From: Candidatus Micrarchaeota archaeon
GTDB lineage: Archaea > Micrarchaeota > Micrarchaeia > Anstonellales > Bilamarchaeaceae
Direction of reading: 5' to 3'
Length of the DNA stretch: 64,000 bases
Assembly: GCA_043821365.1 (NCBI GenBank)
Contig: JBDRCX010000006.1
Span: 192,001 to 256,000 of the forward strand
Both the position numbers and the translations under genes were made by a program. Under the pieces are notes generated by a model, which was not told the DNA's origin, ran no database searches, and saw only the letters and a program-made list of their open reading frames with translations. This document shows, piece after piece, positions 17,921 to 24,899 of this stretch (its first letter is position 1; every line of letters begins with the position of its first letter).

Positions 17921-17967
17921 GCCCAGTTAAACAAAGAGTTTTTGGGCGCTTTTTACCAAAAAGCGCA
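17921..17967. repeat. Double-hairpin palindromic element, copy 1 (between vapB and vapC)
   Basis: GCCCA...AAAC/GTTT...TGGGC, then GCGCTTTTT-ACC-AAAAAGCGC; 19 of 22 nt identical to 22434-22455. Confidence 0.65.
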
Positions 17968-20604: not shown

Positions 20605-22212
20605 ATGCTAGAGAAAACAACTAAGTTTATAGTAATTGCTGGCTCGATAATGTCTGGGCTTGGAAAAGGAATAGTAACTTCTTCTATCGCAAAATTATTG
20701 GCTTCTAGAGGATTCAAAGTAGTACCAATAAAATTTGATGGATATTTGAATGTTGATTGTGGTACCATGAATCCATTCAGGCATGGTGAAGTGTTTGTTT
20801 TAGATGATGGTACGGAAGTTGATATGGATTTTGGTACCTATGAACGATTTTTGAATAAATCACTGCCAGGAATGTGTTCCATAACTGGTGGGAAGTTATT
20901 TCAGAGAATTATCGAAAAGGAAAGAAAAGGGGAATATTTAGGAAGAGATGTTCAGTTTGTACCCCACCTAACCAACGAAATAAAAAATTGGGTAGAAAAT
21001 GTTGGTAAAGAGAATGATGCTGACGTTGTATTAGTGGAAGTGGGGGGTACTGTTGGGGATATGGAAAACAGTTATTTTATAGAAGCTATGAGGCAGCTTT
21101 ATTTTGAAAGAGACAATATGGTTTTTATTCAACTGACCTATGTTCCAAGCCTTAGTCCTGGTGAACCAAAAACAAAACCAACACAACAAGCAACAAGATT
21201 ACTTCAAAGCTTAGGAATACAACCTGGAATGATATTGACAAGAGAACAGGAAAAACTTTCTGATGAATCACGGAAGAAAATAAGCCTATATTGTAATGTT
21301 CCTGAAGATGCTGTATTTGACGATCCAATGGTAAGTACTGTTTATGAACTTCCACTTTTGTTGGAAAAACAAAAATTTTACAAGCAACTTGCAAAGCAAC
21401 TTGGACTTGATGAAAATAAAGAAGCAGATCTTAAGGAATGGCAAAGAAAAGTTAGCCATATTATTGAACCTCGTGGAAAAGCATTGAAAATCGCAATAAT
21501 TGGAAAGTATACTGCAGTGAAAGATGCATATATTAGTGTGAAGGAAGCCCTTGTGCATGCAGGTGCTGCCGTAAATAGTAATCTGGAAATTGGATGGGTT
21601 GAAGCAAATGAATTAGAAAAAAATGATCCCAGTGAATTATTGAAAAAATATGATGGAATACTTGTACCAGGTGGTTTTGGAAGCCGTGGTATTGAGGGTA
21701 AAATAAAAGCAATAAAATATGCAAGAGAAAACAAGATCCCATATCTTGGATTGTGTCTTGGATTACAATTGATGGTAGTTGAATATGCAAGAAATGTTTG
21801 CGGAATGACAGATGCAAACTCAACTGAGTTTAATAAAAAAACAAAATACCCAGTAATCGATATGCTTCCAGAACAACAACAAATTTCAAGATTAGGCGGG
21901 ACGATGAGACTTGGGGCATATGAGTGTGTTATAAACAAAGGAACTATTGCACACAATGCTTACAAAAAAGAGAATGTGAATGAACGACATAGACACAGGT
22001 ATGAAGTAAATCCAGAATATGTGAAGCAACTAACGGATAGAGGTTTGGTTGTTTCAGCAATTCATCCAAAAAATAATATTGTTGAGATGACAGAATGGAA
22101 AGAAAACTTTGGGATTGCAACACAAGCACATGTTGAATTGAAAAGTAGACTGGAAGAGCCTGCACCAATTTTCCTTGAATTTATGAAAGCAGTAAAACAG
22201 AAAGTAGAATAG
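20605..22212 (+). CDS. pyrG: CTP synthase
   Basis: SGLGKG, GTMNPFRHGEVFV, EVGGTVGD, KTKPTQ, GLCLGLQ, ERHRHRYE and QAHVE motifs. Confidence 0.97.
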   Translation: MLEKTTKFIVIAGSIMSGLGKGIVTSSIAKLLASRGFKVVPIKFDGYLNVDCGTMNPFRHGEVFVLDDGTEVDMDFGTYERFLNKSLPGMCSITGGKLFQRIIEKERKGEYLGRDVQFVPHLTNEIKNWVENVGKENDADVVLVEVGGTVGDMENSYFIEAMRQLYFERDNMVFIQLTYVPSLSPGEPKTKPTQQATRLLQSLGIQPGMILTREQEKLSDESRKKISLYCNVPEDAVFDDPMVSTVYELPLLLEKQKFYKQLAKQLGLDENKEADLKEWQRKVSHIIEPRGKALKIAIIGKYTAVKDAYISVKEALVHAGAAVNSNLEIGWVEANELEKNDPSELLKKYDGILVPGGFGSRGIEGKIKAIKYARENKIPYLGLCLGLQLMVVEYARNVCGMTDANSTEFNKKTKYPVIDMLPEQQQISRLGGTMRLGAYECVINKGTIAHNAYKKENVNERHRHRYEVNPEYVKQLTDRGLVVSAIHPKNNIVEMTEWKENFGIATQAHVELKSRLEEPAPIFLEFMKAVKQKVE

Positions 22213-22221
22213 AAAAAGATT

Positions 22222-22491
22222 TGGGCCCGCGCGGAATCGAACCGCGTGTCTCCTGCATTTTGAATCGCCAAAATAGCGACCCCGTTTTGGGCCGCCTGTT
22301 ACCACAAGGCGGAATGTCAAGCAGGCGTCTTAACCATTGTCAGTACAAGCTTCTTACAATCAAAAATAACAAGGTTAAAAAGCTTGACCAAAAACCAAAA
22401 TGATGGTTTTTAGATAACCTTTTTAGTACACCCTAAACAATCAGTTTTTGGGTGCACCTTTTTCCTAAAAAGGTGCATCGACTACGGGCCC
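22222..22491 (-). tRNA. tRNA-Val: tRNA-Val(GAC) with two BHB introns (about 15/16, 140 nt; 37/38, 57 nt)
   Basis: Exons 22491-22477, 22336-22315 and 22257-22222 join to a 73-nt cloverleaf: acceptor GGGCCCG/CGGGCCC, anticodon stem CCTGC/GCAGG with TTGACAT loop, T arm CGCGG-TTCGATT-CCGCG, discriminator A73, no encoded CCA. Confidence 0.9.
22430..22477. repeat. Double-hairpin palindromic element, copy 2 (5' end of tRNA intron 1)
   Basis: ACCC-TAAAC/GTTT-TT-GGGT, then TGCACCTTTTT-CCT-AAAAAGGTGCA. Confidence 0.65.
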
Positions 22492-22517
22492 TAGGACTAA
22501 TTCATATGCCAATAGAT

Positions 22518-22528
22518 TTTATATATTA
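22518..22528 (-). promoter_or_regulatory. TATA box of the tRNA gene
   Basis: AATATATAAAA about 27-37 nt upstream of tRNA G1. Confidence 0.55.
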
Positions 22529-22768
22529 TCCATCTGTGGAAAAAACGTATGTTTTTTCCCAAACAGCTTGTTTTTGTGTTGAAGCGATTGCTTGTTTTGC
22601 TAAATTTCTAACTGTATACGAAGGATCGTGTTCTGATATATAATTAAGAGAAAGTTTCGCCAAGTTGTTGTTTTGTACAAGTTGTTTAAGTTGCTTTATG
22701 GCTTCTTTTCTCCTCATTATGCTTTTACTAGATAATTTTTTTAGCAAATATGCAATATCATCATTCAT
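22526..22768 (-). CDS. Small HEAT/PBS-repeat protein
   Basis: LKKLSSKSIMRRKEAIKQL...HDPSYTVRNLAKQAI. Confidence 0.7.
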   Translation of the reverse strand: MNDDIAYLLKKLSSKSIMRRKEAIKQLKQLVQNNNLAKLSLNYISEHDPSYTVRNLAKQAIASTQKQAVWEKTYVFSTDG

Positions 22769-24899
22769 GTTTACCCCCCTTAAACCAAGACCTTAATCTG
22801 GTCCACCTATCTACAAGAAAATCATGAATTGTTCCGACAAGATACGGTTCATACAGAACAGTTTGTTGTTTTGATTCTGTAGGTACAAGTGTTGTTTCAA
22901 CCTGACTTTGAGTGTATTCAACTGGTCTATGAGAAAGGAATGTGATCAGATAATCTGATAGATACCCTCTTTCCAGATCTAATCTTGGTCCTTGTAATGT
23001 TAGTTGTATACCTTCTCTGCTGTGAAGTATTTGTGCTGCTTCGATAATTCTATCTGAAGTATCTGGAACTAAATTATCAAATCTTGCCTGTCTTTCTGCA
23101 TCTGCGTGTATTTTTGCTTCGGCAGCTTTACGACGTTCTGGTTTCATCTGTTCAAGATCGTCAATAAGTGGTGGAACCAACATCCTATTTCTCTTAATTC
23201 TTTGAATTGCTACTGCTGCAATGGCATCTAATCTTGATAATGTATCATCAGAATATTGTCCATATGTTTGGCCTATGCAAACAATCCGATTCAGTTGAAC
23301 TAATTGATCGATAGTAAGTTCGTCAAAGTTTTGGAAGCGTTCGAGTACATGCGTTCTGAGTTCTCCAAGTTGTTCGCGCAACGCAGTTTGAGTTCTTTCG
23401 TCATTTGTTTTTTTAGCTTCTGTAAATGCCTCACGAATTCCTTCTCTAAATTCGCATATTTCATCAAAAGACATATTTTGTAATTGTTTTTGTTCAGCTA
23501 CTGGTGCGCCACCAGTTGTTCTTATGTCAAGTTGGAACCCTGGAATTTGGATTCCTGCCATGTTATATTCAATAAGAACTGATAGTGCCTTTTGTCTTTC
23601 TTCCTGTTGTTTGATTTTTCTTAATATAACTGCGCCAATACGATCAAGTTCATTTTCTTCTTCTTGAGTAAGTGTTTTTTTATCTGCCCAAATTAATCCA
23701 GTTAATTCAGCCAAGTGATTAAGAGGTAAAATATTCAACGTATCTTCATCTGCATCGCGATATGTTTCCAGTCCAGATTGTGGCGTAACTCTGATTGGCT
23801 CAATAGCAGAACCTGGCATTTTCACCCCGATTCTAACTAACATCGCTCTTCTTTCTTGAATATCATCAGTAATTGAATCCGCAGGCTCTGCATATACTGA
23901 GAGGATTTCGCTTCCAGTTTGTTCCAATAAAGGTCTTAAATAATTAAGTTCATGTTGTTGAAAAAGTTGAATCAGGTGTCTTGCAGCTATAAATTGTCTA
24001 TCATCCGCCAGATCCAGCTGTGCCCGTAATGAGTGTATTGTATGGAGTGATGTTGCTGTGGATGCAAGCTCTGGAGTTTGCGCTCCGATATCACGTGCAA
24101 TTGCATAGAAATAAGGAGGAAGTGATTCTGCATAAGTAAGAATTTCAAGAGTTGTTCTTACGATTTCAATATCTTCATCAAAAAGCATTCTTTGGAAAAA
24201 ATCAAACTTTTTTTCATATGGTGATTGAAGAATATCCATCCCAACAACAGACAAATGTTGTCTAAGATCTGCCCATGGGTGTTCTTCCCAACTAAGTCCT
24301 TCCCTCATTGGCTCTTCGAGCATTAGTTTTATGACAACAGATTGGCAAGCTTCATCATTACCAAGTAAAAATTCATCCCAAAAATTAAGATTACCATAAC
24401 AAAGTTCCCACAGTGCATTCAAACTAGCAACCTTAGCAGCAGATTTAGAGGGATCATCAGAACGATAGTGGCTTGACACGTCAGCCAAACTTCTTAGTTT
24501 GGCAACAACATCATCCAAATGAGTAGTTATTTTATCTCCCCTTTCATCAACTGGTAAATATGCTGCTGCTTCTGCAAAGAATGTAGCAATAACAGTAAGT
24601 TTTCTTGTTTGTTCTGCTGAATCAAATAGATATGACGGGATGCTGCGAAGATCTTTGGCTAATTCTCTCATTGTTTTGTGTTTACCAGCTTCAGTTAGCC
24701 CAGCAAATAGTTCCATTCCTTCTCTAAATACACTACCTGAATCCTCACCAGGATGGCGAATTGGATAACGTATCATATCTTCTATGTGCGATATTCTTTT
24801 GCTCTCTTTAAGATAATTTCTGAAGCTACCACATTGGGCTTTGTGTTCACGAAATGTTGGTCTTGATAATTGAGGCTGAGGATTGATGAATATCACCAA
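22761..24899 (-). CDS. Large alpha-helical orphan protein
   Basis: 712-aa ORF overlapping the HEAT gene; no recognisable catalytic motif. Confidence 0.75.
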   Translation of the reverse strand: MVIFINPQPQLSRPTFREHKAQCGSFRNYLKESKRISHIEDMIRYPIRHPGEDSGSVFREGMELFAGLTEAGKHKTMRELAKDLRSIPSYLFDSAEQTRKLTVIATFFAEAAAYLPVDERGDKITTHLDDVVAKLRSLADVSSHYRSDDPSKSAAKVASLNALWELCYGNLNFWDEFLLGNDEACQSVVIKLMLEEPMREGLSWEEHPWADLRQHLSVVGMDILQSPYEKKFDFFQRMLFDEDIEIVRTTLEILTYAESLPPYFYAIARDIGAQTPELASTATSLHTIHSLRAQLDLADDRQFIAARHLIQLFQQHELNYLRPLLEQTGSEILSVYAEPADSITDDIQERRAMLVRIGVKMPGSAIEPIRVTPQSGLETYRDADEDTLNILPLNHLAELTGLIWADKKTLTQEEENELDRIGAVILRKIKQQEERQKALSVLIEYNMAGIQIPGFQLDIRTTGGAPVAEQKQLQNMSFDEICEFREGIREAFTEAKKTNDERTQTALREQLGELRTHVLERFQNFDELTIDQLVQLNRIVCIGQTYGQYSDDTLSRLDAIAAVAIQRIKRNRMLVPPLIDDLEQMKPERRKAAEAKIHADAERQARFDNLVPDTSDRIIEAAQILHSREGIQLTLQGPRLDLERGYLSDYLITFLSHRPVEYTQSQVETTLVPTESKQQTVLYEPYLVGTIHDFLVDRWTRLRSWFKGGKHE

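Follow-up and report, generated by a model that had tools for sequence, protein, structure and literature searches.

The tRNA-splicing endonuclease of Candidatus Micrarchaeum acidiphilum ARMAN-2, an enzyme of the epsilon2 type with a structure in the PDB (4FZ2; PMC3488258), cleaves both strict and relaxed bulge–helix–bulge (BHB) motifs (PMC3239211). The introns on which it was assayed are short, 13 and 25 nucleotides (nt) in length (PMC3239211). Elsewhere in the Archaea, tRNA introns have a median length of 22–23 nt in Asgard lineages (bioRxiv 10.64898/2026.10.13.758758) and measure 31–103 nt in Haloferax, the tRNA-Trp intron of Haloferax volcanii being excised and circularised via the splicing endonuclease (PMC7714728). 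As to how introns enter archaeal tRNA genes and spread among them, transposition has been inferred in the Thermoproteales, and no route was found in the Asgard archaea. Here we describe a tRNA-Val(GAC) gene of a Candidatus Micrarchaeota archaeon (genome G000), located on the minus strand of a 64,000-nt stretch of DNA (contig JBDRCX010000006.1, positions 192,001 to 256,000; hereafter the window). The gene is interrupted by two introns, each with a BHB core: intron 1 lies in the D-loop between tRNA positions 15 and 16 (15/16), and intron 2 at the canonical position 37/38. The locus is very probably a functional gene, the only one found for this tRNA, from which both introns would be excised by an epsilon2 endonuclease.

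Joined in order, the three exons (Table 1) give a 73-mer that ARAGORN calls as tRNA-Val(GAC) and that forms a perfect cloverleaf, with an acceptor stem of 7 base pairs (bp), a 5-bp anticodon stem, a 5-bp T-stem and the discriminator A73. The call needs the removal of both introns; when a single intron is removed, no correct call is obtained. The exons have a guanine-plus-cytosine (GC) content of 63%, compared with 36% for the whole genome, which is ~1.2 Mb in size and of the ARMAN-2/Micrarchaeota type. CCA is absent from the encoded gene. An earlier note, made from the letters of the window, had read this locus as a tRNA-Val(GAC) gene split by two BHB introns, one of them a 140-nt intron in the D-arm; all its coordinates and motifs are present in the sequence, exact to the nucleotide, and its identification of the gene is upheld by the call on the spliced 73-mer and by contiguous orthologues (below). 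The note had further expected standard pipelines to miss the gene, and this holds for ARAGORN and for Rfam/Infernal. The unspliced locus is not called in an ARAGORN scan of the window, it falls below the Rfam gathering thresholds, and the Rfam tRNA model gives no match to it in a genome-wide search at E ≤ 1. Since neither ARAGORN nor the Rfam tRNA model recognises such genes, annotation by these tools will make DPANN genomes seem to be without essential tRNAs. The three exons are colinear, on one strand and within 270 nt, with a single promoter-like box, an arrangement that is not that of a split or permuted tRNA gene.

Table 1 Features of the tRNA-Val(GAC) locus and of its hairpin-and-tail cassettes, in window coordinates.
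Feature	Position	Strand	Remarks
Whole tRNA-Val(GAC) gene	22222..22491	-	270 nt; three exons and two introns
Exon 1, tRNA positions 1–15	22477..22491	-	15 nt; agrees with contiguous orthologues; acceptor 5′ strand, U8 A9, D-stem 5′ strand G10–G13, A14 U15
Intron 1, position 15/16, D-loop	22337..22476	-	140 nt; junction set by intron-free orthologues
Exon 2, positions 16–37	22315..22336	-	22 nt; remaining D-arm, G26, anticodon-stem 5′ strand, loop carrying anticodon GAC
Intron 2, canonical position 37/38	22258..22314	-	57 nt
Exon 3, positions 38–73	22222..22257	-	36 nt; anticodon-stem 3′ strand, variable loop, T-arm, acceptor 3′ strand, discriminator A73
Intron 1 central helix, 5′ strand	22479..22482	-	G10 U11 C12 G13 (GUCG, D-stem 5′ strand); pairs 4/4
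Intron 1 central helix, 3′ strand	22339..22342	-	UGAC, followed by bulge AA↓U16
Intron 2 central helix, 5′ strand	22317..22320	-	U32 U33 G34 A35 (UUGA); pairs 4/4
Intron 2 central helix, 3′ strand	22260..22263	-	UCAA, followed by bulge AA↓U38
Intron 1 5′ cap hairpin	22455..22475	-	CACCUUUUU-AGG-AAAAAGGUG; member of the 29-copy cassette family
Intron 1 cassette tail	22444..22451	-	CCAAAAAC; kept after the hairpin in most orthologous introns
Intron 1 spacer		-	48 nt, between tail and inverted tail
Intron 1 inverted tail	22388..22395	-	GUUUUUGG; complementary to tail CCAAAAAC
Intron 1 3′ hairpin	22346..22386	-	CAAGCUUUUU ... AAGAAGCUUG; 41 nt, 21-nt loop
Intron 2 cassette	22284..22312	-	hairpin CCGCCUUGUGGUAACAGGCGG and tail CCCAAAAC; degenerate U/A tract
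TATA-like box (putative archaeal promoter)	22517..22525	-	TATATAAAA; 26–34 nt upstream of G1; read by eye
T5 run (putative terminator)	22213..22217	-	5 nt downstream of A73; read by eye
Free-standing cassette	17938..17966	-	GCGCTTTTTGGTAAAAAGCGC and CCAAAAAC; between two protein open reading frames, no tRNA-like exons near
Arrows mark the cut.

The intron boundaries are fixed by comparison. Orthologues were gathered from same-genus and same-order genomes using blastn, a pattern search and a search for pyrG; pyrG adjoins the Val(GAC) gene in most members of the genus, and the loci are therefore orthologous. Among the 27 genus genomes, seven have a contiguous 73-nt gene with no insert (G023, G008, G018, G005, G020, G091 and G095), seven have an insert at 15/16 only, nine have one at 37/38 only, and four have both (G000, G024, G015 and G003). 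Fourteen of the 27 lack the 37/38 intron. Each contiguous gene runs colinear with the proposed spliced product and equals it, and the junctions are thus fixed at 15/16 and 37/38. After removal of the inserts, all 29 orthologues scored by script have a mature length of 72–73 nt. Beyond the genus, five genomes of genus g39 have a contiguous, insert-free Val(GAC) gene, four genomes of genus g13, which belongs to another family, carry an insert of 19–43 nt at 15/16, and three metagenome contigs hold versions of the gene with a 56–57-nt intron. Two metagenome contigs (L064 and L065) have a Val(GAC) gene with a 56-nt intron at 15/16 and a further break within the T-arm, following GGTTCGATTCC, which would bring the intron sites of the Val(GAC) gene family to three.

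We took as a BHB core two strands that each have four helix nucleotides and then a 3-nt bulge, with the cut after the second bulge nucleotide. Both introns have such a core, with a 4-bp helix and two 3-nt bulges, and their removal restores a cloverleaf laid out identically to that of the contiguous orthologues. At 15/16, GUCG pairs with UGAC, the bulges being A14 U15↓G and AA↓U16; at 37/38, UUGA pairs with UCAA, the bulges being C36 A37↓U and AA↓U38. These are the central helices and bulges that the note had claimed. In shuffled introns, a fully paired central helix at the fixed junction arises in 2.4% of cases for intron 1 and 3.3% for intron 2. At 15/16, the helix pairs 4/4 in 13 of the 14 orthologous introns scored and the intron-side strand occurs in six kinds across the 14 orthologues (UGAC, CGAC, CGGC, UGAU, CGAU and GGAC). 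In G003, G13 has become C and is paired with G (GUCC:GGAC), a double-sided compensatory change.

Neither intron has the strict hBHBh′ form, in which the core is flanked by an exon–exon outer helix (h) and an inner helix (h′); both motifs are relaxed. Intron 2 has an h of 5 bp, the anticodon stem, and an h′ of 0 bp by direct pairing, three hairpins standing in place of the inner helix, with the final one adjoining the core. In intron 1, h and h′ are both 0 bp in G000, leaving a 3-4-3 core that closes a multiloop of hairpins. The exon–exon helix at 15/16 was sought in all orthologues scored and is 0 bp everywhere; h′ varies between 0 and 7 bp across them, the shorter orthologues retaining 2–7 bp. 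The earlier description of the outer helices as relaxed is correct as far as it goes, and understates the case for intron 1, where h occurs in no orthologue and h′ is absent from G000. A splicing-competent fold of the precursor, forced to form both cores together with the acceptor and anticodon stems, lies 3.3 kcal/mol above the minimum free energy (MFE) structure (−101.4 versus −104.7 kcal/mol). In G024, the unconstrained MFE structure already includes the 15/16 helix.

From this sequence evidence we infer that the precursor is transcribed, cleaved and ligated. A precursor of ~270 nt would be transcribed from the TATA-box promoter, and a homodimeric, three-unit epsilon2 endonuclease would cut it at the two BHB motifs. 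At 37/38, the enzyme would meet a classic motif, in which the anticodon stem serves as the outer helix and UUGA of the anticodon loop is paired to the intronic UCAA. At 15/16, a pseudo-D-stem flanked by the bulges would form between GUCG, the D-stem 5′ strand, and UGAC at the intron 3′ end, with no outer helix, and the 140-nt body would fold as hairpins within the loop that the pseudo-D-stem closes. RtcB would ligate the three exons and would probably circularise the introns. Finally, the true D-stem would form and CCA would be added.

The enzymes assumed in this pathway are encoded in the genome. EndA (G000:C6:408560-409741) is a protein of 393 amino acids with three EndA-like units (PF01974/PF02778 stretches), of which residues 5–393 align with 4FZ2 at an E-value of 3.5e-132. 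By alignment, the catalytic residues Y236, H251 and K282 are identical to those of ARMAN-2, as are Y160 and K161 of the ARMAN-specific loop and the bulge-stacking residues R275 and W384 (numbering of PMC12397907). The protein is thus of the epsilon2 type, a three-unit polypeptide of ~390 amino acids with the triad and the loop Tyr-Lys pair conserved. A broad-specificity endonuclease had been predicted from the introns, with the type of EndA named as the check, and G000 indeed encodes a full-length epsilon2 EndA. The full-length enzyme is present in all five relatives tested, three of which have an intron-free Val(GAC) gene; the enzyme type therefore does not explain the presence of introns in this gene. 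The RtcB ligase is also encoded in G000.

Two further observations concern these genes. Beside the epsilon2 enzyme, the genome encodes a second EndA-like protein of 163 amino acids (G000:C6:480404-480895, + strand) that has the PF01974 catalytic domain only and whose closest solved relative is the Methanocaldococcus jannaschii enzyme 1A79. The RtcB profile matches (G000:C6:673872-676544, + strand) fall into two pieces 1.4 kb apart within one frame of 910 amino acids, which suggests that the frame holds an intein-like insert.

The codon usage of G000 is consistent with a need for the gene. The anticodon-arm pattern has one match in G000 and one in each relative that has it, and the other two Val genes of G000 have the anticodons UAC and CAC, the Val(UAC) gene (C6:290943-291047) containing one 32-nt intron. 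In long open reading frames, GUU and GUC make up 61% of the valine codons, GUU being the commonest at 35.8 per 1,000. No second Val(GAC) gene, which would have cast doubt on the reading in the earlier note, was found in the G000 assembly, which is 87% complete. The single copy found, the anticodons of the other Val genes and the share of these codons together make a pseudogene unlikely. The tRNA-Val(GAC) gene is probably essential.

The D-arm intron had been called unusually long, which is right when it is set against the published cases and does not hold within its own lineage, where 140 nt is no outlier. In the Val(CAC) gene (C6:554193-554433, + strand), introns of 52 and 116 nt lie at 37/38 and at 59/60 (T-loop), respectively, each with a 4/4 helix, and the spliced 73-mer is called by ARAGORN; Val(GAC) orthologues have 37/38 introns of 189 and 217 nt. 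Introns are widespread in the tRNA genes of G000, only eight of which are recovered when introns are disallowed. The ~30 tRNA genes that could be anchored by T-arm and acceptor pairing span 71–270 nt, eleven of them at least 191 nt, with Val(GAC) the longest, followed by genes of 265, 253 and 248 nt. Enumeration of junctions for single long introns in the other tRNA genes was abandoned, as ARAGORN accepted many contradictory solutions, and gene spans only were used; the single introns of 126–178 nt that ARAGORN itself calls are candidates.

Within the genus, inserts measure 28–140 nt at 15/16 (n = 11) and 30–217 nt at 37/38; the 140 nt of G000 is the longest at 15/16, the runner-up being 78 nt. 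We placed these lengths on a tree of PyrG, a single-gene proxy obtained with a quick search, and counted state changes among 25 genomes. G000, G024 and G015 form a clade with a Shimodaira–Hasegawa approximate likelihood ratio test (SH-aLRT) value of 100, and neither intron is missing from any of the three. At 15/16 their introns measure 140, 53 and 50 nt, respectively; the opening ~45 nt and a few bases at the end are common to them, and in G000 ~90 extra nt stand between these. The ~90-nt middle has no match in 40 relatives; a blastn search of its own genome returns chance-level matches of 13–17 nt only, and an exact 27-nt probe of metagenome contigs gives no match. At minimum, the tree requires four state changes for the 15/16 intron and seven for the 37/38 intron. 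We conclude that intron 1 reached 140 nt by a lineage-specific expansion, its counterparts in the two closest relatives being ~50 nt long.

Both introns begin, 1–2 nt after the cut, with a cassette made up of a hairpin (a stem, U4–6, a 2–4-nt loop, A4–6 and the complementary stem) followed by a tail, CC(C)AAAA(A)C. Searched with a strict cassette pattern, the genome yields 29 copies, against none in a shuffled control. The earlier note had not remarked on the cassette. Twelve copies lie within anchored tRNA genes, in either orientation, and at least one stands free between genes (Table 1). Two cassettes start 17 nt from the 5′ end of other tRNA genes (C6:14158-14348 and C6:684587-684851, both + strand), which probably carry further D-loop introns of a like kind. 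In intron 1, the 5′ cassette is followed by a spacer, an inverted tail and a 3′ hairpin that resembles a cassette in inverted orientation, its loop enlarged, and the intron ends with UAC, the helix strand UGAC and AA. Pairing of tail with inverted tail (CCAAAAAC with GUUUUUGG) was considered as the organising helix of intron 1 and rejected; it is possible, but 5 kcal/mol worse than the intron MFE structure.

The cassette is shared between sites as well as between genes. The start of intron 2 has matches at three other sites in the genome: the tRNA gene C6:753771-753998 contains a 90.7% match to its first 43 nt, the tRNA gene C6:327295-327430 a 90.9% match over 33 nt, and the third site a 96% match over 25 nt. 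The intron 2 cassette and the opening sequence of the intron in G006 and G089 are near-identical; in these two genomes an identical 31-nt cassette stands at 37/38 and at 15/16, respectively, and intron 2 of G000 resembles that of G006 and not those of the sister genomes. In G024 (C9:419409-419650, minus strand), the 15/16 and 37/38 introns open with nearly the same 35-nt cassette. These likenesses suggest that cassette sequence has been copied or converted between the 15/16 and 37/38 sites. The introns form a shared family for a module of ~30–45 nt only, not as whole introns. In its most compact form the cassette supplies the inner helix h′: the whole 15/16 intron of G013 is 28 nt long and consists of a single bulge nucleotide and the cassette hairpin, followed by CGGC and AA, with the hairpin acting as the h′ stem-loop of a compact, near-canonical BHB.

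It is possible, if short of probable, that the Val(GAC) locus captures the birth and growth of introns through a mobile cassette that seeds, moves and enlarges them, with the epsilon2 endonuclease tolerating the outcome. The palindromic hairpin and tail may be a mobile element resembling a miniature inverted-repeat transposable element (MITE), as the free copies between genes would fit. It may seed BHB introns by providing the h′ stem-loop, as in the 28-nt form of G013, and may be copied between the 15/16 and 37/38 sites of one gene, as in G024 and in G089 and G006. More insertions may then enlarge the introns, from 40 to 50–57, 78 and 140 nt at 15/16 and up to 217 nt at 37/38, and the endonuclease may tolerate this by reading only the bulges and the 4-bp helix. 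If so, these introns make up a dated series in which the 140-nt form is the furthest expanded, and a mechanism of intron gain becomes testable across congeners.

The tRNA gene and its TATA-like box fill a 313-nt gap between an open reading frame of 80 amino acids and pyrG, which encodes CTP synthase (window 20605-22212, + strand) and is convergent with the tRNA gene. G024 and G015 retain, upstream of their orthologues, the block around the TATA-like box, and T-runs trail the gene in orthologues too. Upstream lies an open reading frame of 712 amino acids (window 22761-24899, minus strand) with no Pfam match.

Other accounts of the 140-nt insert were weighed. Intron 1 could be composite, an inner BHB element being removed first to leave a ~50-nt intron with an h′. 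Nested splicing of this kind would fit the sister introns of 50–53 nt, which have the same ends and lack the ~90 extra nt; archaeal introns needing ordered removal have been described by the authors of tRNAscan-SE (PMC8450103), and intron 1 holds two internal candidates, each pairing 4/4 and flanked by helices of 3 bp or more. Two is, however, the chance level (shuffled mean 0.88, with two or more in 23% of shuffles), neither candidate leaves a product like the sister introns, and the outer BHB forms already at a low energy cost, so that nested splicing is quite unlikely. Less likely again is that the long intron is kept for a function of its own, as a stable small RNA, a protein-binding hairpin or a T-run attenuator hairpin. 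The euryarchaeal tRNA-Trp intron, for example, hosts a C/D-box guide RNA. Variable stems with conserved U/A tracts and tail are the pattern of a constrained structure, and intron 1 folds stably by itself (−44 kcal/mol over 140 nt). Against this, the best Rfam match in the region scores 25 bits, compared with a gathering score of 70, the middle ~90 nt are unmatched in relatives, own genome and metagenome contigs, and the intron is absent or 28–78 nt long in all congeners. A C/D-box RNA or other known RNA in intron 1 was itself sought and rejected: an Rfam scan by e-value gave nothing credible, and by eye CUGA occurs twice and there is no C box (UGAUGA).

Several points weigh against a functional, spliced gene. 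Promoter and terminator are putative and were read by eye. The 15/16 motif of G000 is without both outer helices and lies outside the MFE fold, and recombinant epsilon2 EndA has been assayed only on the 13- and 25-nt introns, with hBHBh′ or hBH motifs (PMC3239211). The sense strand of intron 1 (window 22337-22476, minus strand) contains four T5 runs, as long as the presumed terminator, which might halt the archaeal RNA polymerase early; and with the assembly 87% complete, a second Val(GAC) copy is possible in the missing part. The missing helices (h′ being kept in the shorter orthologues), the internal T-runs and the incomplete genome would also suit a decaying pseudogene, rendered unspliceable by the 140-nt expansion and the loss of h′, with GUY codons read by another tRNA. 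This is more improbable still: the exons are intact and give a perfect cloverleaf, each central helix is fully paired (4/4) and has the right 3-nt bulges, a second Val(GAC) gene was not found, GUU is the commonest valine codon, G024 and G015 share the conserved promoter block, and other single-copy tRNA genes of G000 are comparably intron-laden, with spans of 248–265 nt. The least probable account makes the insert an assembly artefact of the repeated cassette, of which there are ~30 repeats in the genome. The repeat unit is only ~30 nt, though, a single tRNA gene supplies the sequence on both sides of the insert, the insert stops exactly at a BHB-competent junction within a 798 kb contig, and independent assemblies of ten other species of the genus carry an intron at the same nucleotide. 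A functional tRNA-Val(GAC) gene with two excised introns is the reading that we retain.

The locus offers a natural series, in which one syntenic, single-copy gene occurs in 27 congeners with no, one or two introns at two fixed sites and with lengths of 28–217 nt. Sister species have gained, lost and resized the same introns, which makes the locus useful for studying how archaeal tRNA introns arise and grow. It also presents an extreme substrate for an epsilon2 endonuclease, a 140-nt intron with a 3-4-3 core only, and bears on the structural claim that the enzyme ignores the remaining pre-tRNA.

Compared with ARMAN-2 (PMC3239211, PMC3488258, PMC12397907), G000 has the same type of enzyme, a full-length homologue of 4FZ2, and likewise has multiple and non-canonical tRNA introns, relaxed BHB motifs and a high intron load. 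The published ARMAN-2 introns, however, are 13 and 25 nt long and lie at 37/38, 53/54 and 59/60, whereas here a 140-nt intron without outer helices lies at 15/16, and the repeated cassette of the G000 introns is absent from the descriptions in those papers. The tRNA-Trp intron of Haloferax volcanii (103 nt; PMC7714728) is a BHB intron that also exceeds 100 nt. It lies at 37/38, has a strict hBHBh′ motif and is conserved, whereas the G000 intron lies in the D-loop, is relaxed, has a species-specific length and contains no recognisable RNA gene. The ‘hidden’ D-arm introns of Asgard archaea (bioRxiv 10.64898/2026.10.13.758758) resemble those described here in being missed by standard annotation and defined via compact relatives, and many of them are without a strict BHB, as here. 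They differ in their median length of 22–23 nt and in that almost none are members of families common to different tRNA types; here the intron is long and the cassette is shared.

In accounts of the Thermoproteales (Fujishima 2010 via PMC4090602; bioRxiv 10.64898/2026.10.13.758758), related intron sequence occurs in different tRNA genes and positions, much as the same 31-nt cassette occupies 15/16 in G089, 37/38 in both G006 and G000, and the start of both introns in G024. The presence or absence of introns varies among close species there as it does here. The present case differs in that it concerns another phylum and an epsilon2 enzyme rather than an (alpha-beta)2 one, a module of ~30 nt is shared and not whole introns, and free copies of the cassette also occur between genes. 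The tRNA-Val(GAC) locus is therefore of a known kind, that of the Micrarchaeota and their epsilon2 endonuclease, and differs from the described cases in the length of its intron, the bare motif in the D-loop and a build from cassettes.

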